A program made the position numbers and the translations under genes. The notes under the pieces were generated by a model. The model was not told the DNA's origin. It made no database searches and was given only the letters and a program-made list of their open reading frames with translations. A stretch of 64,000 bases of DNA from Candidatus Levyibacteriota bacterium (GTDB taxonomy: Bacteria > Patescibacteriota > Microgenomatia > Levybacterales > UBA12049): positions 496,236 to 560,235 of the forward strand of contig CP066685.1 of the NCBI GenBank assembly GCA_016432345.1, read 5' to 3'. Shown here one piece after another: positions 1 through 56,962 of this stretch. Position 1 is the stretch's first letter. Every line of letters begins with the position of its first letter.

Positions 1-894
1 AAGGCGGATATTCATTGGCATACCATTGAAGAACAACTAAAATTTCCTCAAATTCTTAATAAAGAAAATATTGACCTGATGCATTTTCCCTACTTTTCTG
101 TTCCTCTTTTTTATAACAAACCTTTTGTTGTTACGATTCATGACTTAATTTTGCATCATTTTCCAACAGGCCGGGCTTCTACGCTTCCACTACCAGCATA
201 CTGGTTAAAACTATTTGTGTACAGGTTTATTTTGAAAAAATCGGCACAAAAAGCGCGAAGGATACTTACTGTGTCTTATGCAACAAAAGACGAGATTGTT
301 AAGCATTTGCATGTGTCTCAAGATAAAATTATCGTTACATACGAAGGAGTAGATACTAAATCTACAAATACCAAATACCAAATACCAAATACCAAATACT
401 TTTTGTATGTTGGGAATGCGTATCCACACAAGAATCTGGAGAGATTAATAGAAGCATCCACGAGAATCAAGCTAATACTAGTTGGTAGAGAGGATTATTT
501 CTATAAAAGACTAAAGGAGAAAGTAAAAAAAATGGGATTAGAAAAACAAATAGTTTTTTATGGATATGCGACTGACGAAGAACTTTCATTTTTATATAAA
601 AATGCTGAGGCACTAATTATGCCGTCTCTTATGGAAGGATTTGGCTTGCCAGTTTTAGAGGCAATGGCTAATAAATGTTTGGTTTTGGCATCAGATATTC
701 CGGCACATAGAGAAATAGCAGGAGATGCAGTAAGTTATTTTAACCCTCTAGATGTTAGAGATATAGAAAAAAAAATGCAGAACATTCATCCAGATGATAA
801 AGTTCAGAAAGGTTTTGATAGGGCAAAAATGTTTTCATGGGAGAGAATGGCAAAGGAAACTTTAAGTATATATGAAAGTTGCGTTAGTGTATGA
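1..894 (+). CDS. Glycosyltransferase family 1 (GT4-like, GT-B fold), 5' end cut by window edge
   Basis: Frame 1 is open from nt 1 with no stop before the ATG at 79, so the gene begins upstream of the window. The C-terminal half has GT1 hallmarks (FLYVGNAYPHKN, PSLMEGFGLPVLEAMA). It carries the (CAAATAC)5 array at 365-399. Confidence 0.85.
   Translation, partial: KADIHWHTIEEQLKFPQILNKENIDLMHFPYFSVPLFYNKPFVVTIHDLILHHFPTGRASTLPLPAYWLKLFVYRFILKKSAQKARRILTVSYATKDEIVKHLHVSQDKIIVTYEGVDTKSTNTKYQIPNTKYFLYVGNAYPHKNLERLIEASTRIKLILVGREDYFYKRLKEKVKKMGLEKQIVFYGYATDEELSFLYKNAEALIMPSLMEGFGLPVLEAMANKCLVLASDIPAHREIAGDAVSYFNPLDVRDIEKKMQNIHPDDKVQKGFDRAKMFSWERMAKETLSIYESCVSV
365..399 (+). repeat. Perfect heptanucleotide tandem array (CAAATAC)x5, 35 nt, in frame in a GT1 gene
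   Basis: Period-7 identity holds exactly from 365 to 399. It encodes NTKYQIPNTKY directly before the first beta-strand of the C-terminal Rossmann domain (FLYVG). Confidence 0.97.
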
Positions 895-1954
895 TCGAGT
901 AAATAAGTGGGGAGGGGCGGAGAGAGTTTTACTTACTCTTCATGAAATGTTTCCAGACGCTCCGTTATATACTTCTGTATATGATTCAAAGAAGGCGCCA
1001 TGGGCAGATATTTTTGATATTCGAACTTCGTTTTTACAAAAATTGCCGATTTCTTTCCATCACGAATACTACCCATTTTTAATGCCGTTGGCGTTTGAAG
1101 GTTTTTCGTTTGACGATTATGATTTAGTTATTTCTGTAACATCAGAGGCAGCAAAAGGAATTATTACTAAACCACATACTTTACATATTTGTTATTGTCT
1201 GACTCCGACTCGTTATCTGTGGAGTGGTTATGAAAATTATTTTAGAAATCCATTGTTTCAGATACTTTCTTATCCATCGGTTTCTTATCTTCGTGCATGG
1301 GATTTGGTTGCAGCAAAGCGGCCAGATGCGTATATTGCGATTTCGAAAGAAGTTCAAAATAGAATAAAAAAATACTACGATCGAGAATCAGAAGTAATAT
1401 ATCCACCTGTTGAAATACCAAATACCAAATACCAAATACCAAATACTGGCTTCTTTTTAGTTGTTTCACGACTTGTATCATATAAGCGGATTGATATTGC
1501 GATAGAAGCATGTAATAGACTCCGTTTGCCGCTTAAAATTGTAGGTGTAGGATCGGAAGAAAAAAGACTAAAACGAATTGCTGGTTCCACAATTGAATTT
1601 TTAGGAAACTTGACTGATAACGAGCTGGTAAGGTATTATAAAGCGTGTCTTGCGCTTATTTTTCCCGGCAATGAAGATTTTGGGATTGTAATGGGAGAGG
1701 CAAGTCTTTTTAGTAAACCTGTTATTGCATTTAAAGGAGGAGGCGCACTTGAGATTATTAGAGAAGGAAAGACAGGTGCATTTTTTTATCCTCAAACAGC
1801 GCAAGCGTTAACAGATTGTTTAATGATATTTAAATCTAAAAGTTTTAAGGATGAGATTATAAAAGATTGCGCAGTAAGGTTTGGCAAAGATAGGTTTAAA
1901 AAGGCATTTTTTGACATGATTGCTATGTTGTATAAAGAACATAGCAAAAAATAA
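872..1954 (+). CDS. Glycosyltransferase family 1 (GT-B fold)
   Basis: 360-aa ORF with an ATG start that overlaps the upstream gene. The C-terminal Rossmann half shows FFLVVSRLVSYKRID and FPGNEDFGIVMGEA. It carries a CAAATAC array at 1412-1446. Confidence 0.85.
   Translation: MKVALVYDRVNKWGGAERVLLTLHEMFPDAPLYTSVYDSKKAPWADIFDIRTSFLQKLPISFHHEYYPFLMPLAFEGFSFDDYDLVISVTSEAAKGIITKPHTLHICYCLTPTRYLWSGYENYFRNPLFQILSYPSVSYLRAWDLVAAKRPDAYIAISKEVQNRIKKYYDRESEVIYPPVEIPNTKYQIPNTGFFLVVSRLVSYKRIDIAIEACNRLRLPLKIVGVGSEEKRLKRIAGSTIEFLGNLTDNELVRYYKACLALIFPGNEDFGIVMGEASLFSKPVIAFKGGGALEIIREGKTGAFFYPQTAQALTDCLMIFKSKSFKDEIIKDCAVRFGKDRFKKAFFDMIAMLYKEHSKK
1412..1446 (+). repeat. Heptanucleotide tandem array GAAATAC(CAAATAC)x4, 35 nt, in frame in the adjacent GT1 gene
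   Basis: Perfect period-7 identity runs from 1413 to 1446. It encodes IPNTKYQIPNT directly before FFLVVSRL, the same structural position as 365-399. Confidence 0.97.
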
Positions 1955-26797: not shown

Positions 26798-27907
26798 ATG
26801 AAAATTCTTATTACAGGAGGAGGTCACTTTTCGCCAGCAATGGCAGTAATTGAGTCGTTGCCAAAAGGCATAAGCGTATTGATGGTGGGTCGAAAGTACT
26901 CATTTGAAGGCGACAACGCGCTATCTATTGAGTATATAGTATGTCAAGAAAGAGGTATTCCATTTATTGCATTATCAACCGGAAGATTACAACGTAAGTT
27001 TACAAAATATACAATTTCCTCTCTTTTGAAAATTCCATTTGGATTTTTTAAAGCACAAAAAATAATGCGTGATTTTAAGCCAGATGTGGTGTTGTCGTTT
27101 GGCGGATATATTTCGCTGCCAGTTGTTTTGGCAGCATATGCGTTTAGGACTCCTATTGTGGTGCATGAACAAACGCTTGAAGCAGGAATGGCAAATAAAA
27201 TTGCATCGTATTTTACGAAAAAAGTTTGTATTTCATGGGAATCATCAAGAAAGTTTTTTCCGAAAAAGAAAGTTGTATTAACGGGAAACCCGATTAGAAG
27301 ATTTAAGATTAAAGATTTAAGATTAAAGATTAAAGATGACGAGAAATTGCCGATTATTTATGTAACTGGGGGGAGTTCGGGGTCGCATGCGATTAACCTG
27401 TTGGTTGAAGGATGTATTGAAGGGCTTTTGGAAAATTTCATTGTATTTCATCAAACAGGCGATGCAAAAGAATTTAATGATTTTGAAAGACTTAATACAT
27501 TTAAAAAAACTTTAAAAAGCTCGTTGCAGAAGCGGTATATTTTAGAAAAATTTGTGCCAATGCAGAATGTTGGAGAGGTAATTAATCGAGCGGATCTAAT
27601 TATATCAAGATCGGGAATCAACACAATAACAGAGCTGTTATTTTTTGGTAAACCTGCAATACTTATTCCTATAACATTTTCTCAAAGAAACGAGCAGTTG
27701 AAAAATGCTACTTTTTTGCAAGAACACGGCTTGGCAAAAGTACTGGAACAAGAGACGACAACAAGCGAAACGCTTTATCAGGAAATTTTAGAGATGCTAA
27801 AGCAGAAAAACGAATATATGAAATCCGCAAAAGAGGCAAAAAAGCTTGTTATTCCAGATGCTCGAGAAAGAATACTTGCTGTACTGCAGCAAGTTGTGAA
27901 AAAATAG
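26798..27907 (+). CDS. murG: UDP-GlcNAc:lipid I GlcNAc transferase MurG
   Basis: It is a GT28 GT-B enzyme with ITGGGHFSPA, VHEQTLEAGMANK, LTGNPIR and VTGGSSGSHAIN. It contains the period-7 cassette at 27301-27335. Confidence 0.9.
   Translation: MKILITGGGHFSPAMAVIESLPKGISVLMVGRKYSFEGDNALSIEYIVCQERGIPFIALSTGRLQRKFTKYTISSLLKIPFGFFKAQKIMRDFKPDVVLSFGGYISLPVVLAAYAFRTPIVVHEQTLEAGMANKIASYFTKKVCISWESSRKFFPKKKVVLTGNPIRRFKIKDLRLKIKDDEKLPIIYVTGGSSGSHAINLLVEGCIEGLLENFIVFHQTGDAKEFNDFERLNTFKKTLKSSLQKRYILEKFVPMQNVGEVINRADLIISRSGINTITELLFFGKPAILIPITFSQRNEQLKNATFLQEHGLAKVLEQETTTSETLYQEILEMLKQKNEYMKSAKEAKKLVIPDARERILAVLQQVVKK
27301..27335 (+). repeat. Period-7 array (ATTTAAG ATTAAAG ATTTAAG ATTAAAG ATTAAAG), 35 nt, in frame in murG
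   Basis: There are five units in two variants. It encodes FKIKDLRLKIKD in the interdomain linker just before IIYVTGGSSG. Confidence 0.93.
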
Positions 27908-33767: not shown

Positions 33768-36581
33768 ATGTTAAAACCAGTCACCTCGCAAGTTGATTTT
33801 CCCAAACTCGAGGAAGAAATTATACAGTTTTGGAAAATCAATAAAATTTTTGAAAAATCAGTTGCCAAAGAAGCGCCAAAAGGTAATTGGACATTTTTAG
33901 ATGGGCCGCCTTTTATTACAGGGCTTCCTCATTATGGTAGTTTGCTTTCTAGTATTCCCAAAGATTTATTTCCCCGTTTTAAAACCATGCAGGGGTATAG
34001 GGTTAGACGTGTTTGGGGTTGGGATTGTCATGGTCTTCCGGCGGAAAATAAAGTGGAAAACAAATTGAGTATTACCCGCAAAAAAGATATTGAAGAAAAA
34101 ATAGGAGTTAAAAAATTTATTGACGAATGTAAATTGTATGTTAAGGATGTGTCTTCGGAATGGGAATGGTATGTAGACCACGTTGGCCGCTGGGTTGATT
34201 TTAAAAATGCCTACAAAACCATGGACTTACCATATATGGAGACAGTGATGTGGGTATTTAAACAAATGTACGACAAGGGTTATATTTACAAAGGTCTTCG
34301 GGTGTCGCTTTATTGCCCACATTGCTCAACGCCAATATCAAACTTTGAGGTTGCGATGGATGTTGATAATTATAAAGAGATAACTGATGCGGCAACAACA
34401 TATAAATTTGAGTTGCAAGATGAACTAAAGACGTTTATTCTTGCTTGGTCAACAACTCCCTGGAATAAAATTGTTACTCCTGCGTTGGCAGTTAATCCAA
34501 AATTGACTTATGTAAAAGTTAAGCAAGGTAACGAAAATTATATTTTAGCTAAAACAACTCTAAAAATACTTACTGGAGATTACAAAATTGTGGAAGAATT
34601 TAAAGGGGCAAAACTTGTGGGCATGCAGTATGTTCCGCATTACGATTATTATCCAATCGAAAAAGGCAAACAAGCATTTGTGATTATTCCTGGTGATTTT
34701 GTTACAGCAGAAGAAGGCACAGGAGTTGTAACAATTGCTGCTTATGGGGAAGAAGATTTAAAAGCCATGCAGGAAAATAATATCCATATTGAAATGCATC
34801 TGGACGAAGAAGGAACAATCAAACAAGATGTAGCACTTTTTGGCGGGATGTACTATCTTAAGGCGAATAAAGCCGTCAACGAAGATTTGGCAAAGAGGGG
34901 TTTAATTTATAAAGACGAGCAGTTGCCTCACAATGTTCCATTATGTTGGCGGTGTCATACTCGTTTGTATTATGGGCCGCAGAATGCCTGGTACGTGAAT
35001 GTGCAGAAATTAAAAAAAGAAATGAAGGAAACAAATGAGACTACTAATTGGTTTCCCAAACATTTTAAATATGGCCGATTTTTAAAAAGCTTAGAAGCAG
35101 CGCCAGATTGGTGTATTTCAAGAAGTCGTTATTGGGGATCGCCTGTGCCGGTATGGGAGTGTACATGCGGACAGCGGATAGTACCCGGTTCAATTAGAGA
35201 ATTAGAAGAATTCTCCGGTAAAAAAATTACAGATTTGCACAAACCCGAAATTGACGAAGTAATTATTAAATGTTTATCATGCGGCAAGAATGCAAAACGG
35301 GTCACCGAAGTTTTGGATAGCTGGATCGAAGCAGGTTCTGCGTCGTTTGCCGAACGCCATTTTCCTTTTAATAAAAGCGTAAAACTTACCGATTTTTTCC
35401 CACCCGATTTTATTGTGGAATATACAGGACAAATCCGCGCCTGGTTTTATGTGTTGCATGTGATTACAAATGCTTTGTATAAATCAAACGCCTACAAAAA
35501 TGTTGTGGTAACAGGAGTTATTTTAGGGACCGATGGCAGGAAGATGAGTAAAAATTACGGCAATTATCCAGATCCGAAAGAAATGCTGCAAAAATATGGC
35601 GGTGATGCACTGCGACTTTACTTAATGGGAAGTCCTGTGATGCATGGAGAAGATATCCTTATTTCTGAAGAACAATACAAACAACAAGTTAAAGGCACCA
35701 TACTTATTTTGTGGAATGTGTACAATTTTTTCGTATCAAATGCGATCGTTGACCAGTATCAAGTGTTAAGTATAAAGTATAAAGTATCAGAGAATATATT
35801 AGATCAATGGATCGTTTCATTGCTACAGAAGTTGATAAAAGAAATAACAGATGCTTTAGAAAAATACGATACTATTTTGGCTATAAAAGAAGCAGAAGGA
35901 TTTGTTGGTGATCTTTCGACTTGGTACATCAGGCGAAGTAGAGATAGGGTGGGAGCTGCGGTAGAAAATAGTAAAGATAAAAGGGCGTTTTATGAAACAA
36001 CATATTATGTGTTAACAACTCTTTGTAAACTTCTTGCGCCCATTATGCCATTTATTACAGAAGAGATGTATAAAAATTTAACAGGGGAGGAATCGGTTCA
36101 TTTATCGGATTGGCCGCGAACAGATCAAAGATTAAAGATCAAAGATCAAAGAATAGAAATCGAAATGGAGCAAGGTATACAACTTGCGTCAAAAGTGCAT
36201 GCTTTACGAAAACAGACAAATATCAAAGTTCGTATCCCTCTTAGAAAATTATCATACAAAGGACCAGAGGAACTTATAAAAGAAGTAAAGAAGGTTGTTT
36301 TGGATGAGGTGAATGTATACGAATTAGTTTATGCGGGCAAGAGTGATAATTATGAAGTTTCTGGTGATACAAGTCAAAAAAATCAGGATATCGAAGCAGG
36401 AAAAGCGCGGGATATTATTCGAAGTATTCAAGAAGAGCGAAAAAAACTTGGCACCAGCCTTGATGAATATGTTGATGTTGTTATCGAATCCTGGCCAAAA
36501 GAATTTGAAAATACAATCAAAAAGAAAGCGCTAGTTAAAACGCTTATTAAAGGTAATCAATTTAACGTTGTTAGAATATGA
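33768..36581 (+). CDS. ileS: Isoleucine--tRNA ligase (type 2, eukaryote/archaeal-like)
   Basis: The sequence shows GPPFITGLPHYG (HIGH variant), KMSKNYGN (KMSKS), a CP1 editing domain and WCISRSRYWG. It contains period-7 cassettes at 35755-35789 and 36123-36157. Confidence 0.95.
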   Translation: MLKPVTSQVDFPKLEEEIIQFWKINKIFEKSVAKEAPKGNWTFLDGPPFITGLPHYGSLLSSIPKDLFPRFKTMQGYRVRRVWGWDCHGLPAENKVENKLSITRKKDIEEKIGVKKFIDECKLYVKDVSSEWEWYVDHVGRWVDFKNAYKTMDLPYMETVMWVFKQMYDKGYIYKGLRVSLYCPHCSTPISNFEVAMDVDNYKEITDAATTYKFELQDELKTFILAWSTTPWNKIVTPALAVNPKLTYVKVKQGNENYILAKTTLKILTGDYKIVEEFKGAKLVGMQYVPHYDYYPIEKGKQAFVIIPGDFVTAEEGTGVVTIAAYGEEDLKAMQENNIHIEMHLDEEGTIKQDVALFGGMYYLKANKAVNEDLAKRGLIYKDEQLPHNVPLCWRCHTRLYYGPQNAWYVNVQKLKKEMKETNETTNWFPKHFKYGRFLKSLEAAPDWCISRSRYWGSPVPVWECTCGQRIVPGSIRELEEFSGKKITDLHKPEIDEVIIKCLSCGKNAKRVTEVLDSWIEAGSASFAERHFPFNKSVKLTDFFPPDFIVEYTGQIRAWFYVLHVITNALYKSNAYKNVVVTGVILGTDGRKMSKNYGNYPDPKEMLQKYGGDALRLYLMGSPVMHGEDILISEEQYKQQVKGTILILWNVYNFFVSNAIVDQYQVLSIKYKVSENILDQWIVSLLQKLIKEITDALEKYDTILAIKEAEGFVGDLSTWYIRRSRDRVGAAVENSKDKRAFYETTYYVLTTLCKLLAPIMPFITEEMYKNLTGEESVHLSDWPRTDQRLKIKDQRIEIEMEQGIQLASKVHALRKQTNIKVRIPLRKLSYKGPEELIKEVKKVVLDEVNVYELVYAGKSDNYEVSGDTSQKNQDIEAGKARDIIRSIQEERKKLGTSLDEYVDVVIESWPKEFENTIKKKALVKTLIKGNQFNVVRI
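33838..33872. repeat. 35-bp direct repeat, copy 2 (native ileS codons 24-35, WKINKIFEKSVAKE)
   Basis: It is identical to 32773-32807. It lies in the conserved N-terminal region of IleRS, upstream of the PPFITGLPHYG (HIGH-type) motif. Confidence 0.95.
35755..35789 (+). repeat. Degenerate period-7 array (AGTATCA AGTGTTA AGTATAA AGTATAA AGTATCA), 35 nt, in ileS
   Basis: It has five units of consensus AGTRTYA. It encodes QYQVLSIKYKVS. Confidence 0.8.
36123..36157 (+). repeat. Period-7 array (GATCAAA GATTAAA GATCAAA GATCAAA GAATAGA), about 35 nt, in ileS
   Basis: It has four clear units and one degenerate unit. It encodes DQRLKIKDQRI and shares AGATTAAAGAT(T/C)AAAGAT (17/18 nt, same reading frame, peptide RLKIKD) with the murG array. 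Confidence 0.88.
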
Positions 36582-37660: not shown

Positions 37661-37687
37661 ATAGTTTGTTATAATTATCTTTTGTGT

Positions 37688-38059
37688 ATGAATTACGTTA
37701 TTGTTGAAGCTGGTGGAAAGCAATATAAAGCATCGGTTGGAGATGTTTTAGAAATAGATAGACTTTCCGTCGAAAAAGATAAGGAGATTTCTTTTGATAA
37801 GGTACTTTTTTTGCGAACCGATGGACAGGTTCAAATTGGTAAGCCGACACTTTCTGACGTGCGGGTAAGGGGGAAGGTTTTGGATCACATAAAGGGAGAA
37901 AAAATTAGAGTAAGTAAATATAAAGCCAAAGTTAGACATCGAAGAACAACAGGTTTTCGCGCTGCTCTTACCAAAGTGCAAATAGTAGGAATTGACTTTT
38001 TAGGCAGTACGAAAACAGAAGAGAAGAAGAAAATAAAGGGAGATGTTCTGATATCTTGA
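37688..38059 (+). CDS. rplU: 50S ribosomal protein L21
   Basis: MNYVIVEAGGKQYKASVGDVLEID is the canonical L21 N-terminus. The ATG at 37688 is preferred over the TTG at 37682. A Lys-rich C-terminal extension of about 25 aa is present. Confidence 0.92.
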   Translation: MNYVIVEAGGKQYKASVGDVLEIDRLSVEKDKEISFDKVLFLRTDGQVQIGKPTLSDVRVRGKVLDHIKGEKIRVSKYKAKVRHRRTTGFRAALTKVQIVGIDFLGSTKTEEKKKIKGDVLIS

Positions 38060-38099: not shown

Positions 38100-38144
38100 A
38101 AAGAATAATTTTTAATTTTTCACTTTAACTTTTAATTTATTTTT

Positions 38145-38407: not shown

Positions 38408-39250
38408 ATGGAAAATCAAGAAAGAATATTTGAACTAGAAGTATCACTGCTCCAGCCAAATCCTCTTCAACCGCGAGGCATTATTACCACAGAATCAATT
38501 TCGGAGCTTGTTGAGTCAATAAAAGAGCAGGGAATTTTAGAACCATTAGTGGTGGCAAAAACACCGGCTGGATATCAAATTATTGCTGGAGAGCGTAGAT
38601 TTAGAGCTGCCAGATTGGCAGGTTTTGCAAAAGTACCAGTTGTGGTGAAAGAAACCACTCCTCAAGGCATGCTGGAAATGTCTATTGTGGAAAATGTTCA
38701 GCGAGAAGACCTAAACCCAATTGAGAGAGCGCTTGCTTACAAACGGCTCATTGACGAATTTGGTCTTGGCACCAATGAGGTTGCAAAACGGGTTGGAAAA
38801 AGCGCTCCCACAGTATCTAATACCATTAGACTTTTGTCCCTGCCTGATGCCATAAAAGATGCGCTTGTGGCAGGTGTTATCACCGAAGGACATGTTAGAC
38901 CTCTTATTTCTCTGGGCGATATCAAGCTAATGCTTGAGCTTTTTAAAAAAATCCTCAAAGAAAACAGCACTGTTCGTCAGACAGAAGAACTGGCACGGCA
39001 AGTAAGAGGAGAAGTGCAAAAAAACGTGGGCGGCCGAACAGAAAAAGATAAGTTATGGATTCCAGAACTTGATGAAATAGCAAAAAAGCTAGAAAAAACA
39101 CTTGGGTTTGATACAGTCAGTGTTTTTCAATCCCGAAGCCAAGCCCGTGTTACTTTTGTGATTAGAGGAGATGTTGATATTACAACACCTAAGATTAAAT
39201 ACTTAAAAGAGCTGCTTACAAAAGAAGATGCAACACTGCAGCAAAACTAA
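38408..39250 (+). CDS. parB: ParB/Spo0J-family partition protein (no adjacent parA)
   Basis: It has the ParB box GERRFRAARLAG and the HTH segment NEVAKRVGKSAPTVSNTIRLLSLP. Confidence 0.88.
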   Translation: MENQERIFELEVSLLQPNPLQPRGIITTESISELVESIKEQGILEPLVVAKTPAGYQIIAGERRFRAARLAGFAKVPVVVKETTPQGMLEMSIVENVQREDLNPIERALAYKRLIDEFGLGTNEVAKRVGKSAPTVSNTIRLLSLPDAIKDALVAGVITEGHVRPLISLGDIKLMLELFKKILKENSTVRQTEELARQVRGEVQKNVGGRTEKDKLWIPELDEIAKKLEKTLGFDTVSVFQSRSQARVTFVIRGDVDITTPKIKYLKELLTKEDATLQQN

Positions 39251-48470: not shown

Positions 48471-49211
48471 GTGAGTAAATCAGATAGAAGAAAAAAACAT
48501 GAGGATTTTCATAAAAATACCCATATACAAAAGAGACTAATAAATGTAAATAATTTTACATACAGAATTATTATCTCTGTCATAAATAAATATTTAAAAG
48601 GAAAAAAGAAAATTTTAGATATTGGTTGTGGTGCTGGCACTATATGTTTATATTTAGCGGGTAAAGGATATGATGTGCTTGGAATAGACATTTCTCAAAA
48701 TGCTATTAATTCGTGCAATGAAAGTGCTAAAGTTTTGGGATTAGAAAATGTTAATTTTGAAAGAAAAACATTTCCCACAGAAATTCCTAATGATAAATTT
48801 GATTATATTATTTGCAGTGAGGTTATAGAGCACCTTGAGGACGATGATTTTGCTCTAAAAAAAATATATGCGCTTCTTAAACCTAATGGTATTGCCATTT
48901 TTTCTACTCCTTCAGAAAATGCTCCACTTTATAAACTTGGTTTAGCAAAGGAATTTGATGATAAAGTTGGTCATTTAAGACGATATACCGTGGAAAAATT
49001 GGTAGCGAAATGTAAAACAAACAATTTTTCTATTCTAGAAACAAGAAAAACAGAGGGTGTTTTAAGAAATTTTTTATTCCTAAATCCAGTTGCAGGTAAA
49101 TTTGTTCGTTTTATTAAATTTTTTATTTCTGATATCGTGACTTTTTTTGATGAAATATCCTTGAGATTATTTGGAGAATCACAAATTTTCGTAGTTGTTA
49201 AAAAGTTATGA
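48471..49211 (+). CDS. Class I SAM-dependent methyltransferase
   Basis: SAM motif I is ILDIGCGAGTICLYLA, and the post-I acidic residue is in VLGIDIS. The gene uses a GTG start; there is no in-frame ATG before motif I. Confidence 0.82.
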   Translation: MSKSDRRKKHEDFHKNTHIQKRLINVNNFTYRIIISVINKYLKGKKKILDIGCGAGTICLYLAGKGYDVLGIDISQNAINSCNESAKVLGLENVNFERKTFPTEIPNDKFDYIICSEVIEHLEDDDFALKKIYALLKPNGIAIFSTPSENAPLYKLGLAKEFDDKVGHLRRYTVEKLVAKCKTNNFSILETRKTEGVLRNFLFLNPVAGKFVRFIKFFISDIVTFFDEISLRLFGESQIFVVVKKL

Positions 49212-49951
49212 TCTCCTTTTTTTTTGGGAGGGGTTACAATTTTGAAGCGCATATAGTTTTAACTATAAATAAATTTTATATAGCAGTTTTTTTGTTTTTG
49301 CTGATTGTTATTCCTTTTATTACGTTTACATTGCAAAAAAAGAGCAGTGAGCCGTCTGTTACGAATTTTATACCTACTATTGCTCCGAGCGCCACAGAGA
49401 AGACTACCGCAACAATTACGGAATTTGTGCCGGTATCGGAAAGTCCACAGGATAATCAACAATTGACACCTCCGCCATTTTATCCAGGTTTGTCATGGAC
49501 ACTTGTAGACAAACAAGAACTAAAAAAAAGTATAGGTGATTATAAGGTTCATTATTCAAGCAAAAATCACGATGGTAATTTTTCTCTTTCTGGCAAAGAG
49601 TGGGTGGGGGTAAAACAAAAAATCTCACAAGTTGAATTAAACAAAATGGAAGGTGATTTTACTAATTACTATAACGACAAGCTTACAAAGCTTGGGTGGG
49701 AATCTTCAACAGAAACAAATGGATTTTTGCTTCAATCTATAGCTGCTGATGGTCCTAGTGGCGGTATTTGGGGATATGTTAAAGTAGAAAACGAAACAAC
49801 ATTAGAAGCCATTATTTTACAAAAAGAAACGCCAACTTCTCTTTTTTCTCCTCCAGAAGGAGATCCTGATCCATGTCCTTGTGATATTACCTTTCGAATA
49901 TTTGTAAGTAATCCCCAAGACCTTACAAAAGTTTTACCTACATCTCCTTAA
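49208..49951 (+). CDS. Hypothetical membrane-anchored extracytoplasmic protein
   Basis: 247 aa with one TM helix (FYIAVFLFLLIVIPFITF) and a Thr/Pro-rich linker. I recognise no family. Confidence 0.5.
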   Translation: MISFFFGRGYNFEAHIVLTINKFYIAVFLFLLIVIPFITFTLQKKSSEPSVTNFIPTIAPSATEKTTATITEFVPVSESPQDNQQLTPPPFYPGLSWTLVDKQELKKSIGDYKVHYSSKNHDGNFSLSGKEWVGVKQKISQVELNKMEGDFTNYYNDKLTKLGWESSTETNGFLLQSIAADGPSGGIWGYVKVENETTLEAIILQKETPTSLFSPPEGDPDPCPCDITFRIFVSNPQDLTKVLPTSP

Positions 49952-49952
49952 T

Positions 49953-50981
49953 ATGACTATACTTTTTTTTGCCAGGTTGTTTTGGCCTCATGGGGGTGGG
50001 GTGGAGACGCATGTTTTGGAAGTGGGGAAAAGGTTAATTGGAAAAGGATATAAGGTTGTAGTTGTTACCGAATTATTAGCAAAGACAAAAGAAAAAGAAA
50101 ATATAGGGGGGATTGAGATTTTTAGAATTCCGGTTGGGAAAGATAATTGGTTTAAGAAATTTAGAATTTGGAAGTGGTTTTGGCAAAACAGAAAGTTAAT
50201 CCAGCAAGCAGATATTGCGCATGCTCACGACGTTTTCTTTTGGTACCTGCCTTTTCGTTTTCTCTATCTTAACAAACCAATCTATACTACCTTCCATGGC
50301 TACGAAACAAAATTCCCTCCGGCAAAGAAAGCAATTTTCGTTCGTAGGCTAAGCGAGAAGCTCTCTTGGGGAAACATTTGTGTAGGAGACTATATTAAAA
50401 AGTGGTACAAGACAAAACCGAACTACATTACTTACGGAGGCGTGAACGTCCACCTCGGAGGAGTCATGGTTTCGCAAGCTCAGCAGCCTGCCACCATCCG
50501 AGGTGAAGACCAAAAACTTAACATACTTTTCATCGGGAGATTGGAGGAGGATATTGGGATTAGCTTGTATTTACAAGCTATACGAAAGATGAAAAAGACC
50601 AGAAATGTAGATGTTATTTTTTTGGGAGATGGGAGTTTTCGACATGAGGCAGAGAAGTTGGGCAGAGTTACAACATTTCAAGAGAAGTTTGTCGTCCAGG
50701 CAGATGTGGTATTTGCCTCTTCATATCTTTCGATGCTGTCTGCCATGGCTGCCAAAAAACCAGTTGTTGCCGTGTATACAAATTCTCTAAAAAAAGATTA
50801 CTTAACTATGACACCGTTTGCAAAGTTTATAACGATTGTTGATTCTCTTGATAAGATTGTGGATACAGTAAAAAATTTAGAGAAAACAAACCAGATGGTC
50901 GATCAGGCATATGACTGGGTAAAAGGTCAGACATGGGAGAAGATAGTTAATCTATATATAAAATTGTGGAAGATGAATTAA
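49953..50981 (+). CDS. Glycosyltransferase family 1 (GT-B)
   Basis: The sequence shows FWPHGGGVETHV and ILFIGRLEEDIG. A locally GC-rich stretch lies at about 50434-50510 in the interdomain linker. Confidence 0.8.
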   Translation: MTILFFARLFWPHGGGVETHVLEVGKRLIGKGYKVVVVTELLAKTKEKENIGGIEIFRIPVGKDNWFKKFRIWKWFWQNRKLIQQADIAHAHDVFFWYLPFRFLYLNKPIYTTFHGYETKFPPAKKAIFVRRLSEKLSWGNICVGDYIKKWYKTKPNYITYGGVNVHLGGVMVSQAQQPATIRGEDQKLNILFIGRLEEDIGISLYLQAIRKMKKTRNVDVIFLGDGSFRHEAEKLGRVTTFQEKFVVQADVVFASSYLSMLSAMAAKKPVVAVYTNSLKKDYLTMTPFAKFITIVDSLDKIVDTVKNLEKTNQMVDQAYDWVKGQTWEKIVNLYIKLWKMN

Positions 50982-51041
50982 CTATGATCTTTCGAAAGAT
51001 CAAAAGAAATTCAGATTAGATTGATTTGACAGTAATAAATT

Positions 51042-51992
51042 ATGAAGATAAGTTTTATTTCGACTGTTTACAATGAGGAGAAGACGATTGGATGGATGCT
51101 AGAGAGTTTGGCAAAACAGACGAGGATGCCAGACGAGATGATTATTGTAGATGGAGATTCAACCGACAGTACGCTGTCGGTAATTTTCAATTTTCAATTT
51201 TCAATTTTCAATCAAAACACAAAAAATAAATTTTCAAAAATAAAAATACTTACAAAAAAAGGGAATCGGGCGGTGGGACGAAATGAGGCGATAAGAAATG
51301 CGACAGGCGATATTATTGTATGTTCGGATGCGGGATGCCAGTTGGATAAGGATTGGGTGAAGAATATTGTGAAGCCGTTTGAAAATCCAAAAGTAGATGT
51401 TGTCGCAGGGTACTATGCAGCAAAGCCACAATCGATCTTTCAAAAATGCCTGGTGCCATATGTGCTTGTTATGCCAGATAAGATTGACCCTAAAAATTTT
51501 CTTCCGGCATCCCGCACAATGGCATTTAGAAAATCTATTTGGGAAAAAGTTGGTGGGTTTCCAGAAAGATACTCGCATAACGAAGATTATGTTTTTGCAA
51601 AGAAGTTAAAGCACATTGGAGTAAATATCGTTTTTGCCAAAGATGCCATTGTTTACTGGATGCCTCGAAAGAATCTAAAGCAAGCATTCATTATGTTTTT
51701 CCGCTTTGCCTTTGGCGACGCAGAAGCTCGTATTTTTCGCCCAAAAGTTTTTTTGATTTTCGTTCGTTATTTATTTGTATTTTTTCTCATTTTTTTACTT
51801 ATTGGTTTTCAACTATACGCTATACGCTATACGCTATACGCTATGTTTTTATTGTACGTGACGTGGTCTGTTTGGAAGAACTACAAATACGTTGCAGACT
51901 GGCGCGCAATCGTAATTTTGCCTATACTACAAATAACTGCTGATATTGCAGTAATTTTGGGAACGATATGGGGTATACAACACAGGCAATAA
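51042..51992 (+). CDS. Glycosyltransferase family 2 with C-terminal TM region
   Basis: The sequence shows ISFISTVYNEE, IIVDGDSTDST, GRNEAIRNA and CSDAG, with C-terminal hydrophobic helices. It carries cassettes at 51183-51213 and 51813-51844. Confidence 0.85.
   Translation: MKISFISTVYNEEKTIGWMLESLAKQTRMPDEMIIVDGDSTDSTLSVIFNFQFSIFNQNTKNKFSKIKILTKKGNRAVGRNEAIRNATGDIIVCSDAGCQLDKDWVKNIVKPFENPKVDVVAGYYAAKPQSIFQKCLVPYVLVMPDKIDPKNFLPASRTMAFRKSIWEKVGGFPERYSHNEDYVFAKKLKHIGVNIVFAKDAIVYWMPRKNLKQAFIMFFRFAFGDAEARIFRPKVFLIFVRYLFVFFLIFLLIGFQLYAIRYTLYAMFLLYVTWSVWKNYKYVADWRAIVILPILQITADIAVILGTIWGIQHRQ
51183..51213 (+). repeat. Perfect heptanucleotide array (AATTTTC)x4.4 in a GT2 gene
   Basis: Period-7 identity holds from 51183 to 51213. 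It encodes IFNFQFSIFN just after the DGDSTDST motif. Confidence 0.95.
51813..51844 (+). repeat. Perfect heptanucleotide array (CTATACG)x4.6 in the same GT2 gene
   Basis: Period-7 identity holds from 51813 to 51844. It encodes LYAIRYTLYAM within the C-terminal hydrophobic region. Confidence 0.95.
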
Positions 51993-53191
51993 AAGGGATT
52001 TCGTGGGTTGGTCTTCTTCGGGGAACGACGCGAATTGTATCATTTGCAAAAATTGCCATTCTGGCCAGAATTTTAACCCCAGCCCAATTTGGCGTGTATG
52101 GCATTGCCGCACTTGCCCTGTCTTTTTTAGATGTCCTGACCGAGACAGGAGTAAATGTTATTTTAATACAAGAAAAAGACGATATTGACCGACATATCAG
52201 TTCGGCATGGATTGTGTCGATAGCGCGAGGAATTTTAATGTCGGGGGTTATATTGGTTATGGCGCCGTTTGTTGCTGGTTTTTTCCAAAGCCCTGATTCG
52301 CTTTTTTTGTTGCAGCTAATTAGTATTGTGCCTTTGCTTCGCGGATTTATTAACCCTTCGGTGGTAAAGTTTCAAAGAGATTTACAGTTTAAGAAAGAGT
52401 TTTTATACCGGTCGGTGTTGTTCGTAATCGATGCTGGTACGGCGGTTGCAGTTGCCTTTGCCACTCATCAAGCGGCAAGTATTGTGGTTGGGTTGATTGT
52501 GGGGGTGGTTGTCGAAGCAGTATTGTCTTTTGTTGTTGCGAAGCCAAGGCCAACACTGCGGTTTGAAAACGAGTATATTGCCAAGATATTTCATAGGGGA
52601 AAATGGGTAACATTGTCGGGAGTATTCCAGTACTTATTCCAAAATGTCGACAACATTGTGGTTGGTAAGTTGCTTGGTACTGGGTCGCTTGGGCTTTATC
52701 AGCTTGGGTATTCCATATCTATTTTACCAATTAGCGAAGTGGCAGATGTGGTATCTCGGGTGACTTTTCCTGTTTATACAAAGATAGCAGATGATACCGA
52801 CAGGCTTCGTAAAGCATTTATGCGGACTGTTATGATTATTGCATGCGTTACGATTCCTTTTGGGATTATTTTGTTTTTCTTTTCCGAACAGCTAATTACT
52901 CTTGTATTTGGAAAGCAGTGGGTGGGTGTTGTTCCCGCTCTTCGAGTTTTGGCTATTTTTGGCGTTATTCGCGCAGTGTTTGGTTTTTGCGCCACGCTTT
53001 TTTTGGCAGTTGGAAAGCAAGAATATATTACCGTGGCAACGCTTGCAAGTATTACAGCCATGGGATTAGTTATTGTGCCGTTTGTTAATTCGTTTGGGTT
53101 GATTGGCGCAGCGTATGCAGCACTTGTTGGGTCAGTTTTTGGGAGCATTGTTTTTAGTTTTTTTACCATTAAGGTTTTGTATTCTAAATGA
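51968..53191 (+). CDS. Polysaccharide biosynthesis protein / Wzx-like MOP-family flippase
   Basis: 407 aa with about 12 TM helices. The N-terminus KGISWVGLLRGTTRIVSFAKIAILARILTPAQFG is typical of PST-family flippases. Confidence 0.78.
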   Translation: MGYTTQAIKGISWVGLLRGTTRIVSFAKIAILARILTPAQFGVYGIAALALSFLDVLTETGVNVILIQEKDDIDRHISSAWIVSIARGILMSGVILVMAPFVAGFFQSPDSLFLLQLISIVPLLRGFINPSVVKFQRDLQFKKEFLYRSVLFVIDAGTAVAVAFATHQAASIVVGLIVGVVVEAVLSFVVAKPRPTLRFENEYIAKIFHRGKWVTLSGVFQYLFQNVDNIVVGKLLGTGSLGLYQLGYSISILPISEVADVVSRVTFPVYTKIADDTDRLRKAFMRTVMIIACVTIPFGIILFFFSEQLITLVFGKQWVGVVPALRVLAIFGVIRAVFGFCATLFLAVGKQEYITVATLASITAMGLVIVPFVNSFGLIGAAYAALVGSVFGSIVFSFFTIKVLYSK

Positions 53192-54288
53192 AAATTGCAT
53201 TTTTTCATGAATTACCGTTTGGGGGGGCGCATCGCGTGGTTGTAGAATACGGAAAAATACTTTCCAAAAACCACGATGTCGATGTGTTTTATGTGGACAG
53301 GGAGGAAGAAAAAAATCTGGAGTCGATTTTTAATAAGTCTTATTTTTTTCGGTTTTCCCAAAAAAGCGGTCGTGGGTGGTGGGGGACACGTTTGTATAAC
53401 GATACTTTAGGGCTTTTTTTCTTGTCTATTTTGCATTGGCGGATAGCTCGGTTAATTGACGAGCAGAAATACGATTTTGTTTTTGTGCATCCGTCAAAAT
53501 TTACCCAAGCCCCTTTTGTGTTGCGGTTTCTTAAAAGCCCAATCATATATTTTTGCCAAGAGCCGCTTAGACTAGCATACGATCCATTTATATCAAGACT
53601 TCCAGACGTTTCGCTGCCAAAAATGTTATATGAGAAATCTGTGCGTTTTATGAGAAAAGTTATTGATAGGTCAAATGTTGGATTTTGTGATTTTATTTTG
53701 GTAAATTCGTCTTTTTCTAAAAAAACTATACAGCAAGCATATGGTAAAGATGCAACAGTTTGTTATTTGGGCGTAGATGAGAATAATTTTAAACAAATAC
53801 CAAGTAAAAATGAATACGATGTACTTTTTGTTGGACAAAAAATAGCTGTTGAGGGGTATGATTTATTGGAAGAGGCGTTGTCTTATTTTCCCAAAAAAAT
53901 AAAAGTAAAAGTTATTGAAAGAAATTTACAGGGAGAGGGGATAGCAGATAGACAACTTGCAGAAGAAATAAATAGCGCAAAAATTGTTGTGGCTTTAAGT
54001 CGAAATGAACCATTTGGATTAACTGTTTTGGAGGCAATGGCCTGTGGCGCGCCGGTTGTTGCGGTAAAAGAAGGAGGATATATTGAGACAGTTATAGATG
54101 GGGAGACAGGATTTTTAATTGACAGAAATCCAAATGAGTTGTATGAAAAAATTAGTATACTTCTTGCAGATGGAAAGTTAAGAGAAAGATTTGGAGAATA
54201 TGGCAAGCATCATGTTTTACAAAATTGGACATGGGAAAAAAGTGTCGAGAGATTTTTAAAAATAATTTCGCAAGGAGGGGAAAAATAA
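53188..54288 (+). CDS. Glycosyltransferase family 1 (GT-B)
   Basis: The sequence shows VLFVGQK and SRNEPFGLTVLEAMACGAPVVA (E-x7-E region). Confidence 0.85.
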   Translation: MKIAFFHELPFGGAHRVVVEYGKILSKNHDVDVFYVDREEEKNLESIFNKSYFFRFSQKSGRGWWGTRLYNDTLGLFFLSILHWRIARLIDEQKYDFVFVHPSKFTQAPFVLRFLKSPIIYFCQEPLRLAYDPFISRLPDVSLPKMLYEKSVRFMRKVIDRSNVGFCDFILVNSSFSKKTIQQAYGKDATVCYLGVDENNFKQIPSKNEYDVLFVGQKIAVEGYDLLEEALSYFPKKIKVKVIERNLQGEGIADRQLAEEINSAKIVVALSRNEPFGLTVLEAMACGAPVVAVKEGGYIETVIDGETGFLIDRNPNELYEKISILLADGKLRERFGEYGKHHVLQNWTWEKSVERFLKIISQGGEK

Positions 54289-55088
54289 TTATTTCAATTA
54301 TTATTGTTCACTACAAAGTAGAAAAAGAGCTTTTTGATTGTTTAAATTCAATTGAAAAATCACAACAAAAAAGTATTTACGAAATTATTGTGATTGATAA
54401 CAATGAAGAGCCGACAATAAAATCAGAGCTTTCTAAAAAATTTCCTAATGTAATTTACATTAAGACAAATAAAAATATAGGTTTTGGAGCGGCCAATAAT
54501 CTTGGCGCAAAAGTGGCAAAAGGCGAATTTTTATTTTTTCTAAATCCCGATACAAAAGTTTTTCTTAATACAATTGATGCGTTGATTAATTTTTTAAAAA
54601 ATCATCACCATGCAGGAATTGTGGCGCCGCTTCTTCTTAATAAAAAATGTAATCCTTATTCATTACAAGGAAGTGCAGTGTTGACACCATTTCGGGCAAT
54701 TATGTGTTTGTCATTTATTCAAAAACTTTTCCCAGAAAATATAATATACAAAGAGTATTACCTTTTAGATTGGGATAAGAAGTTTATAAGAGAAGTTGAT
54801 GTGATTCCTGGGACAGCATTTCTTGTGAGGAAAAAAATCTTTGAAGAAGTCGGTGGGTTTGACGAGCGATTTTTTCTTTTTTTCGAAGAAAATGATTTGT
54901 GCATGCGTGTTAAAGAATTTGGATACAAAATATATATAACGCCAAATGCAAAAGTTATGCATCTGTGGGGTGAAAGCACCAAAAGTTTGCCAAATACAAA
55001 GGAAATATTTAAAAAAAGCAGAGAGTATTATTTTCAAAAGTACTTCGGTTTTTTCTGGGCATCTGTTGTTGAGCTATTTTGCAGATGA
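54225..55088 (+). CDS. Glycosyltransferase family 2
   Basis: The sequence shows ISIIIVHYK, VIDNN, GFGAANNLG and FLNPDT. The start is uncertain: TTG at 54225 or ATG at 54231 would overlap the upstream gene by about 60 nt. A strong AAGGAGG SD at 54272-54278 points instead to ATA at 54285 or ATT at 54288. Confidence 0.8.
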   Translation: MDMGKKCREIFKNNFARRGKIIISIIIVHYKVEKELFDCLNSIEKSQQKSIYEIIVIDNNEEPTIKSELSKKFPNVIYIKTNKNIGFGAANNLGAKVAKGEFLFFLNPDTKVFLNTIDALINFLKNHHHAGIVAPLLLNKKCNPYSLQGSAVLTPFRAIMCLSFIQKLFPENIIYKEYYLLDWDKKFIREVDVIPGTAFLVRKKIFEEVGGFDERFFLFFEENDLCMRVKEFGYKIYITPNAKVMHLWGESTKSLPNTKEIFKKSREYYFQKYFGFFWASVVELFCR

Positions 55089-55100
55089 TACAATATAGTT

Positions 55101-55850
55101 ATGATTAGCGCTGTTATTCTTACCAAAAACGAAGAGGAGAATATAGAGGTTTGTATAAAAGGACTTCGGTGGTGCAATGAGGTAATTGTTGTTGATGATA
55201 ATTCAACCGACAAAACAAGAGAAATTGCAGAAAAATTAGGCGCCAAAGTAATTGATCATAGTTTAAATAATAATTTTTCTGAAGCGCGGAATTATGGATT
55301 GGAACAGACAAAAGGGGAATGGGTTTTATTTGTTGATGCAGACGAGCGGATTTCGGATTCGTTAGCTTTCGAAATAGGCAGTATGCTTACCATGCAGGCG
55401 GTTGACGCATATGATGCATTTTACATAAGAAGGATAGATACGATATGGGGAAGACAGCTGTTGCATGGAGAAAATGGTATGGTAAAGTTTATTCGGTTGG
55501 CCAAAAAAACAAAAGGTGAATGGAAAGGGGCGGTGCATGAAACATGGCAAATAAAAGGAAGGGTCGGACAGTTGAAGAATCCTCTTTATCATTATCCGCA
55601 CCAGACAGTTTCGGAGTTTTTAACAGAAATAAATTATTATACTACCATTCGGGCGCAGGAATTATACAAAAAAAGAGTAAAAGTGCATGTGTGGGATATA
55701 ATTTTGTATCCAAAGGCAAAGTTTTTTGTTAATTATGTTTTAAAAAGAGGTTTTCTTGATGGTATGCCAGGATTAGTTGTTGCGATACTCATGAGTTTTC
55801 ATTCCTATCTTGTCCGCGGTAAATTGTGGTTGCTATGGCAGAAAAAATAG
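55101..55850 (+). CDS. Glycosyltransferase family 2 (WaaE/Kdo-core-type)
   Basis: The sequence shows ISAVILTKNEEENI, VVDDNSTDKT, RNYGL and FVDADE. Confidence 0.85.
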   Translation: MISAVILTKNEEENIEVCIKGLRWCNEVIVVDDNSTDKTREIAEKLGAKVIDHSLNNNFSEARNYGLEQTKGEWVLFVDADERISDSLAFEIGSMLTMQAVDAYDAFYIRRIDTIWGRQLLHGENGMVKFIRLAKKTKGEWKGAVHETWQIKGRVGQLKNPLYHYPHQTVSEFLTEINYYTTIRAQELYKKRVKVHVWDIILYPKAKFFVNYVLKRGFLDGMPGLVVAILMSFHSYLVRGKLWLLWQKK

Positions 55851-56962
55851 TTAAGGTTTTTTTCGTTTTTCTTCTTTTGTTGTTTCCACTGGGGGAGATT
55901 GCCCGTTTTGACCTGGGGAATAATATTGCAGTGCATGCTTTTGATATGGTAGCTGTTTTTGCGCTTTTTGCCAAAAAACTTCCAAAGTTTATTCTTTTTT
56001 TTGTGGTGACATTAATTGTTTCTCTTCTTGTTAATATTAATAATTACCAAACAAATGAATTAATTACTGCATCTTTTTATCTTTTAAGATGGGTTGGGTA
56101 CGCGGGACTCTATGTTGTTGTTTCTAATTTTGATAAACAGTTTAAAAATAAAATCATTCAACTTTTAGTTGGGGTCGGTGCAATAATAGTTGGGCTTGGG
56201 TACATACAGTATTTTTTGTATCCCAATCTTCGTAACTTGTATTATGCAGGGTGGGACGAACATTTATATAGAATGTTTAGTACATTTTTAGATCCGAATT
56301 TTGCCGGGGCATTTTTTGTGATGTATTTCATGTTTGTTTTGGGAAAGGCTTTAGAAAATGGACAAAGTAAATATTATTACACCATATTAGGTGTTTTAAC
56401 ACTGGAAGCAATTTTTCTGACCTACTCTCGGAGCGCATATATTATGTTTGGTGTTGCCCTAACGGTTTTTTTCTTGTTGAAAAAGCAAAAAAAGTTATTG
56501 TTTTGGTGGATACTGGGGCTTGTTTTATTATTGCCAGTTTTGTTTTTATTCTCGCCAAAATCTGAAGGGACAAATTTGTTACGGACAACTTCATCTAATG
56601 CCAGGGTTTTAGCAATGGATCAGGCAATAACCATTATTAAAGATAATCCAATTTTTGGCGTTGGGTTTAATGCCTATAGATACGAGCAAGAAAAGCGTGG
56701 GTATTTAGGGCAATCGACAAAAGAAAACCATGCGGGTGCTGGGACAGATAATAGCTTCTTGTTTGTTTTGGCGACAACGGGAGCAATTGGATTTAGCGCA
56801 TATTTTTATCTGTGGTATTCGATTGTCCGTAGACAAAAAAGTATTGTAGCGCTTTCATCAATTGCTGGGCTTTTTGTGAACGCATTTTTTATTAACAGTT
56901 TGTTTTATCCAATTATTATGGCGTGGATATGGATTTTAACAGGTATTACTGAGAACGAGTAA
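55826..56962 (+). CDS. O-antigen ligase/polymerase-like (Wzy_C) polytopic membrane protein
   Basis: It has about 10 TM helices with a central loop, LTYSRSAYIMFG...NHAGAGTDNSF, characteristic of the O-antigen ligase family. The start may be the ATG at 55835. Confidence 0.7.
   Translation: MVAMAEKIVKVFFVFLLLLFPLGEIARFDLGNNIAVHAFDMVAVFALFAKKLPKFILFFVVTLIVSLLVNINNYQTNELITASFYLLRWVGYAGLYVVVSNFDKQFKNKIIQLLVGVGAIIVGLGYIQYFLYPNLRNLYYAGWDEHLYRMFSTFLDPNFAGAFFVMYFMFVLGKALENGQSKYYYTILGVLTLEAIFLTYSRSAYIMFGVALTVFFLLKKQKKLLFWWILGLVLLLPVLFLFSPKSEGTNLLRTTSSNARVLAMDQAITIIKDNPIFGVGFNAYRYEQEKRGYLGQSTKENHAGAGTDNSFLFVLATTGAIGFSAYFYLWYSIVRRQKSIVALSSIAGLFVNAFFINSLFYPIIMAWIWILTGITENE

Follow-up and report, generated by a model that had tools for sequence, protein, structure and literature searches.

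The window, i.e., the whole 64,000-nt stretch of DNA that was analyzed, harbors a Wzx/Wzy-type glycan cluster at 48471..56962 with genes for a methyltransferase, GT4, GT2, Wzx, GT4, GT2, GT2, and Wzy_C. The GT2 gene that precedes the Wzx-like flippase gene carries two perfect heptanucleotide arrays, here called array 1 and array 2 (Table 1). Array 2 is 32 nt long with a period of 7, 4.6 copies, and 100% matches according to TRF, with which our own exact scan agrees, and its unit CTATACG becomes GCTATAC when read in the register of the orthologues. The ORF translation gives the peptide LYAIRYTLYA, within the translated context ...GFQLYAIRYTLYAMFLLY..., at 81% of the gene and away from its 5′ end. 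An earlier note, written from the sequence alone, had described array 2 as perfect, coding, and located in the membrane region, and had placed the flippase start at 51968 over the end of the GT2 gene. The description of the array is borne out by TRF, the exact scan, the ORF, and an AlphaFold2 model, and the ORF coordinates likewise confirm the overlap, with the flippase ATG 25 nt inside the 3′ end of the GT2 gene. Against NF007773, the flippase ORF scores 205 bits, which is under the cut-off of that model.

Table 1. Period-7 coding arrays of the window, with the GT2 gene and the overlapping flippase gene (position 1 is the first nucleotide of the window).
Feature	Position	Strand	Basis
Perfect (CAAATAC)x5 in a GT4 gene running off the window start, linker between Rossmann halves	365..399	+	
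Perfect (AAATACC)x4.9 in GT4 gene 872..1954, inter-domain linker	1413..1446	+	
Period-7/14 array GATTAAA/GATTTAA in murG-like gene 26798..27907, linker between GT28 N and C domains	27292..27337	+	
Imperfect (AGTATAA)x4.7 in ileS 33768..36581, between catalytic and anticodon-binding domains	35755..35787	+	
(AGATCAA)x4.4 with one mismatch, ileS anticodon-binding region	36122..36152	+	
Membrane GT2 glycosyltransferase gene, 951 nt, 316 aa, host of both arrays	51042..51992	+	ORF, PF00535
Array 1, perfect (AATTTTC)x4.4, encodes IFNFQFSIFN	51182..51212	+	TRF
Array 2, perfect (CTATACG)x4.6	51813..51844	+	TRF, exact scan, direct sequence view
Wzx-like MOP flippase gene	51968..53191	+	ORF; PF13440 (Polysacc_synt_3), 248 bits

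The GT2 protein scores 87.1 bits against PF00535 (gathering cut-off, 23.3), which assigns it to the GT2 family. It is 100% identical to its own NCBI record, annotated as Candidatus Levyibacteriota and placed on a 762,565-bp contig, and the closest other protein in the homology search is 69% identical. An exact look-up of the protein on contigs gave no match. The AlphaFold2 model, which was built on 30 homologues and has a pLDDT of 88, shows a GT-A domain followed by three long C-terminal helices (residues 234-256, 259-284, and 289-315). Its best matches among solved structures are the membrane GT2 enzymes PcManGT (6yv7) and the Chlorella virus hyaluronan synthase, and the match probability is 1.0 for both 6yv7 and 8snc. 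Array 2 encodes residues 258-268, which correspond to a turn and the first third of the second C-terminal helix (pLDDT ~94), and the segment is thus modeled as a turn plus the start of a transmembrane helix and is predicted to be structurally permissive. Array 1 encodes a surface segment, modeled with low confidence, at the end of GT-A domain helix 44-57.

The genomic context of GT2 differs among the orthologous loci. In many of these loci, GT2 is fused to a PMT_2 (GT-C) domain in one ORF of 840-877 aa, and the fusion ORF starts at GT2 (L003, L005, L011, L016, L026, L070, L074, L080, and others). In other orthologous loci, a PMT_2 gene adjoins GT2 on the opposite strand, while the neighbor in the window is the Wzx-like gene instead. 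The fusion to and adjacency with PMT_2 suggest that GT2 may produce a lipid-linked sugar for a GT-C transferase.

Seven coding period-7 arrays were identified in the window, located in two GT4 genes, the murG-like gene, ileS (two arrays), and the GT2 gene (two arrays), and genes of the glycosyltransferase fold host five of the seven. The window contains five perfect period-7 arrays that reach 20 nt or more, compared to none in 100 first-order Markov resamples, in which the longest was 18 nt, and its perfect arrays of all other periods between 4 and 10 are at most 18 nt long. The units of the two GT4 arrays are rotations of each other (AAATACC and CAAATAC), and the arrays occupy the equivalent linker in adjacent genes, which could result from either array-to-array conversion or parallel origin. 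The 14-nt period of the murG-like array consists of two alternating heptamers, and this alternation keeps an in-frame TAA out of the gene. The window ileS scores 736 bits against TIGR00392 (cut-off, 621), and its orthologues in L006, L008, L040, L050, L057, and L077 have arrays at similar relative positions. A single period-7 array of the window is non-coding, namely an imperfect (TAATTTT)x4.9 at 38106-38138 in the intergenic region between ORFs 37682-38059 and 38408-39250. The presence of two perfect arrays in a single gene had been considered highly unusual in the earlier note. This does not hold for this lineage, as L050 and L010 have arrays at both sites of the GT2 orthologue and several ileS and GT4 genes contain two arrays each.

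The preference for period 7 extends beyond the window. Together with 80 orthologous loci (50-67% protein identity) that were taken from MAGs of Levybacteria and other Patescibacteria, the window makes up a set of 1.46 Mb, in which 46 of the 48 strong tandem arrays (at least 3 copies and at least 90% matches in TRF) have a period of 7. The length histogram of perfect arrays is bimodal for period 7 alone, with a second mode at 30-32 nt, and periods 5, 6, 8, and 9 show no long tail. In these loci, heptanucleotide repeats are therefore in large excess over both expectation and other unit lengths. Nearly all of the strong period-7 arrays (45/46) are coding and lie inside ORFs that read through them. 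The coding strong arrays have 3.0-5.6 copies, most often 4.4, and the sole array with 7.3 copies is non-coding. The hosts fall into four groups, namely the GT2 orthologue with two fixed sites (relative positions 0.15 and 0.8), GT4 genes with arrays in the linker joining the two Rossmann halves, the murG-like gene with arrays likewise in the linker, and isoleucyl-tRNA synthetase. In an unbiased metagenome scan for (AATTTYC)x3, the hosts include TsaD, a class I aaRS, TrmD, RsmA, Fmt, GT4, GT2, and Wzy. The units are AT-rich, and unit families recur across genes, with AATTTYC found in GT2, GT4, and ileS, and AAGATTA-type units found in murG and GT2. The density in these genomes is roughly one array per 20-30 kb.

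Many MAG records with clear Levybacteria-type loci (e.g., L001, L003, and L004) are titled ‘uncultured Gammaproteobacteria bacterium’, which is probably a labeling error. In addition, the higher-GC contigs from other habitats that were recovered in the metagenome scan (L081-L200) contain the same AT-rich heptamer units in longer arrays of 7-12 copies, located close to the start of long ORFs (within their first few percent) or, between genes, as inverted pairs (e.g., L177 4463-4544, L122 1870-1919, and L110 5565-5663). These longer arrays have the layout of classical contingency loci, unlike the short internal arrays of the CPR-like contigs.

Site 2, the position of array 2, was aligned across orthologues using two invariant motifs, RPK and W..KNY, as anchors. 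The segment from RPK to W has a constant length of 42 aa in 34 of 37 orthologues (window included), with or without surviving DNA periodicity, and the corresponding anchor distances at site 1 have modes of 31 and 33 aa regardless of periodicity. These distances show that the arrays do not add 7 aa compared to orthologues without an array. At least 18 of 24 period-7 matches are kept at site 2 in 10 of the 37 orthologues, and none of the 37 reaches 18 of 24 matches for periods 4-6 or 8-11. The units read TTAATAC TTAATAC TTTATAC TTAATAC in L010 and L022, TTTATAC x4 in L066 (L008 is nearly the same), and GCTATAC x4.6 in the window. An invariant ‘ATAC’ recurs every 7 nt in a common codon register in the window, L001, L010, L066, L008, and L022, and the family consensus peptide ILNTLYLIL is accordingly itself the translation of a heptamer array because the orthologues carry these register-matched ATAC arrays. 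At two positions in each unit, the window has GC in place of the TT or TA of the other five. L012, when compared to L007, is in an intermediate state, with ATAC changed to ATGC in three of four units.

From these alignments, array 2 is homologous to the site-2 arrays of the orthologues. The window unit changed at two positions in all copies while the array length did not change, which points to concerted evolution, and the comparison indicates that this class of repeat evolves in this manner even between proteins that share only 50-67% identity.

The lengths and irregularities of the arrays reflect the reading frame. In the metagenome set, 53-57% of the arrays within long ORFs are 30-32 nt long, compared to 24% of the arrays without a long open frame, which show a broad spread from 21 to 50 nt. 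The simplest reading of the coding length peak is a frame filter. Moreover, the consensus unit contains a stop triplet in 24 imperfect coding arrays, and several such arrays deviate by exactly one base, which removes the in-frame stop. For the TTAATAC arrays at site 2, the third unit is TTTATAC in every species, and this is the copy in which TAA would be in frame. Such stop-removing deviations in otherwise regular arrays imply that the arrays are about as perfect as the frame permits.

Site 1 is also occupied across the family. Approximately 18 orthologues have arrays at the gene offset of array 1 (about nt 141), with units that are one mutation apart (AATTTCC, AATTTCA, AATCTCA, and AATATCA). 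Separately, GT2 orthologues contain a GC-rich element of ~55-65 nt with 9-bp terminal inverted repeats (CACCTCGGA...TCCGAGGTG) as an in-frame insert. This element occurs twice in L001 (10160-10215 and 10353-10415), with one copy exactly at array site 1, and can be seen as the peptide ‘FTSEESKSLLRHHPRW’ in P0003, P0006, P0008, P0013, P0016, L030, and L054. Its features resemble those of a small mobile or REP-like palindrome whose insertion coding sequence can tolerate.

One explanation of array 2 is a classical contingency locus, in which slipped-strand mispairing by one unit would reversibly switch GT2 off and the lost translational coupling may also reduce the Wzx flippase. With array 1 included, there would be two independent switches that vary the surface glycan of a regulator-poor, episymbiotic CPR bacterium. 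The form of array 2 agrees with such a locus, as it is a perfect repeat inside an ORF, its unit is not a multiple of 3, and a change in unit number alters the product. Based on computed alleles, a change of -1 or +2 units results in a 270- or 277-aa product with a stop 107 nt before the wzx ATG, while a change of +1 or -2 units results in a product of 302 or 295 aa that ends in 32 foreign residues and has its stop 25 nt before the wzx ATG. Frameshifted versions do therefore have alternative C-termini, a point that the earlier note had raised. Both OFF frames truncate GT2 before its invariant C-terminal motifs (W275, K279-N280-Y281, L293-P294, and Q297), whereas a change of three units leaves the frame intact. 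The location of GT2 within a Wzx/Wzy-type glycan cluster and the prominence of glycosyltransferase-fold genes among the array hosts of the window also favor a contingency locus, as does the precedent of heptanucleotide coding switches such as neuO (PMC13001214). The persistence of the array sites across deep divergence would likewise be expected under selected mutability.

However, the arrays do not behave as switches in the available assemblies. In the 81 Levybacteria loci, an out-of-frame state is seen in none of the 33 perfect arrays and none of the 45 strong coding arrays, no array splits two long frames in the manner of a frameshifted gene, and the frame is intact in all 74 orthologues located by the GNR motif. 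No repeat-number variants were found in the 90%-identity clusters of ten orthologues, and the length differences of 5, 7, and 20 aa within these clusters are all due to alternative start calls. The copy number clusters closely around 4.4-4.6, and the length of the region at site 2 is constant. In the deeply sampled sister population from Rifle (P0131/L010), which has arrays at both sites, at least 24 contigs (48 index blocks) encode one and the same 314-aa protein, with no near-identical truncated or longer variant on record. Thus, as judged from assembled sequences, no polymorphism of OFF alleles is apparent. The arrays are also not confined to or enriched in dispensable surface genes, as similar arrays are found in ileS, murG, tsaD, trmD, rsmA, and fmt. 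In place of a long tract near the 5′ end, array 2 has 4.6 copies at a position 81% into the gene, and the copy numbers of the coding arrays (3-5.6) are low compared to neuO, with 3-53 copies and 66% of genomes OFF (PMC13001214).

Each test applied, on assemblies in which a minority of OFF cells would be invisible, went against phase variation at array 2, which is weakened as an explanation. Array 2 is a weak candidate for a switch, and a contingency locus is unlikely overall. The two frameshift switches proposed in the earlier note therefore stand only in part. A change of one or two units would indeed shift the frame and remove the C-terminal helices, but no OFF alleles were found that would mark the arrays as dedicated switches. 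Other candidates were also considered. Of the 16 ‘candidate frameshift’ arrays that the mixed metagenome set contains, most mark junctions between genes of unrelated organisms, and they are uninformative for this lineage. Programmed ribosomal frameshifting, DGR-type mutagenesis, and RNA structure were considered on paper. The heptamers do not fit the X XXY YYZ pattern of slippery sites, and the units differ between sites.

An improbable alternative is a hypervariable cassette maintained by recombination, in which a patch of ~85 nt would be swapped between co-existing lineages or converted from other arrays. The patch would provide in-frame allelic diversity with no ON/OFF switching, and the repeat would be either a substrate for exchange or a scar of it. 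The basis for this alternative is the variation between close strains. The sister-sample contigs L204 and L205 have 11 differences in ~3,880 nt outside the site-1 array (99.7% identical), but a patch of ~85 nt over this array (1635-1719) is completely different and has altered flanks. One allele is (AATTTCA)x4.4 and the other alternates AATATCA and AAAATCA, and compensating 2-nt indels keep both in frame. In L027 and L093, which are 94% identical overall, 4 of 7 positions differ in each unit, with ‘ATT’ retained in register. The unit families shared by different genes (AATTTYC and the AAGATTA type) are also in agreement with conversion between arrays. Patches at site-1 arrays can hence be hypervariable between close strains, possibly through rapid turnover, short-patch recombination, or strain mosaics in the assemblies. 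Nevertheless, the strain-pair hypervariability was seen at site 1 only and not at array 2, both strain pairs may be assembly mosaics of co-existing strains, and no donor copies were identified. In addition, the array-1 segment is cytoplasmic in the model, which leaves diversifying selection with no obvious agent.

An assembly or sequencing artefact, i.e., a collapsed or invented repeat, might be suspected because the lengths of 30-32 nt are near common k-mer sizes and only one assembly of the source population is available, but it is effectively excluded because homologous arrays in matching codon register are present in independent assemblies from many projects and every array keeps the frame, which a collapse preserving length modulo 7 would not achieve. 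The absence of the 30-32-nt peak among non-coding arrays, together with the in-frame state of all coding arrays, also eliminates k-mer collapse as the source of this mode, and the artefact pattern described in the earlier note, in which the repeat is missing from all related genomes, is contradicted by the register-matched site-2 arrays of the orthologues.

Instead, array 2 is probably an ancient, slippage-homogenized, and frame-filtered coding microsatellite in a permissive segment, and not a purpose-built switch. It likely belongs to a class of heptanucleotide microsatellites that is old, in frame, conserved in position, and found throughout the lineage. Such arrays may arise through replication or repair slippage that, in these genomes, would strongly prefer a 7-nt register. 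Since coding DNA keeps only frame-preserving states, the first permitted expansion would be three units (+21 nt) added to one native unit, and the resulting ~28 nt plus a partial unit of 2-4 nt would give 30-32 nt and 4.3-4.6 copies, as observed. The 4.6 copies of array 2 would correspond to this first frame-preserving state. Out-of-register pairing may then copy units onto one another, and base changes would spread in the pattern that is seen at site 2, with the array length and register fixed and with selection vetoing only in-frame stops and intolerable residues. We infer this homogenizing step and its rate from the pattern of units. The arrays persist at permissive protein sites, which here are GT-B inter-domain linkers, a GT-A surface helix, the ileS domain junctions, and, for array 2, a turn and the start of a transmembrane helix. 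Frameshifted GT2 alleles from rare slips, presumably null in effect, are probably mutational by-products.

Several observations count against this microsatellite reading. Five of the seven coding arrays of the window are in glycosyltransferase-fold genes, as a surface-variation system would show, although the loci were chosen in such a way that all are glycan clusters. The differences in the ~85-nt site-1 patch may represent recombination between old alleles rather than slippage. Furthermore, no in-frame allele with 7.x copies was found in coding DNA, which leaves homogenization by cycles of +3/-3 units without direct support. A broader version of the microsatellite reading is also conceivable, though we regard it as somewhat doubtful. 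In this version, Levybacteria, and probably other CPR, may have a DNA-level process that actively homogenizes arrays in a 7-nt register in essential and glycan genes alike and makes patches of ~30-85 nt hypervariable. Arrays in dispensable genes such as GT2 might then double as low-rate, two-site switches, with OFF frames that differ in polarity on the flippase.

Taken at face value, array 2 would add phase variation to the biology of the uncultured, regulator-poor CPR, but the evidence points elsewhere, to a single class of repeat (7 nt, ~31 nt long, and always in frame) embedded at conserved codons of both housekeeping and glycan genes. This calls for caution in automated phasome prediction from MAGs, as a perfect non-triplet SSR in a glycosyltransferase gene is insufficient to call a switch. 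Short hypervariable patches may also confound strain-level comparisons. On the other hand, the arrays offer a clean natural system for work on the ways in which coding microsatellites are shaped by slippage bias, by selection for the frame, and by the avoidance of stop codons.

Both SSRs with a 7-nt unit and coding switches based on such repeats are already known. Our searches of the literature on CPR, Microgenomates, and Levybacteria yielded no relevant report of heptanucleotide repeats, and we found no account of heptamer arrays in essential genes that are conserved in position, locked in frame, and evolving in concert. The closest coding example is neuO of Escherichia coli K1, carried by the CUS-3 prophage, in which an (AAGACTC)n tract at the 5′ end mediates phase variation, with 3-53 copies and an OFF state in 65.6% of the 64 complete genomes (PMC13001214). 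As for array 2, the 7-nt unit lies inside the ORF of a surface-glycan enzyme (a surface-glycan-modifying one in the case of neuO), three units correspond to seven amino acids, and the full-length product is made in one of three unit-number classes. Array 2 differs from neuO in its position at 81% of the gene, its fixed number of ~4.6 copies, its register conserved across species, and its OFF state, which was never seen. Haemophilus influenzae has heptanucleotide SSRs in the hmw1A/hmw2A promoters, as well as AACAACC in a TonB-dependent receptor gene and AATTTTG inside hmw1A (PMC2651432). These tracts resemble the window arrays in their 7-nt units and, in some cases, their intragenic location, but those of H. 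influenzae have 6-38 copies, vary between strains, and include frameshifted alleles with truncated ORFs, and no such variation is seen for the window arrays.

Coding SSRs in general are tolerated at permissive protein sites, as the arrays here appear to be, and N-terminal enrichment has been proposed as a signature of phase variation (Lin and Kussell, 2012; PMC3315296). That study concerned short units in cultured species, and it did not describe long-lived, concertedly evolving heptamer arrays. An excess of heptameric SSRs has been reported in many prokaryotes, with the hypothesis that the polymerase footprint biases slippage to 7 nt (Mrazek, 2007, as summarized in PMC4692102). The heptamer repeats of the cyanobacterial and Xanthomonas type share with the arrays here a lineage-specific excess of period 7 over other long-unit SSRs. 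However, those repeats are G-rich, mostly intergenic, often G-quadruplex-forming, and variable between close species. The Levybacteria arrays do not belong to this intergenic type, as their units are AT-rich, 45 of the 46 strong arrays are coding, and they are locked in frame at orthologous codons.
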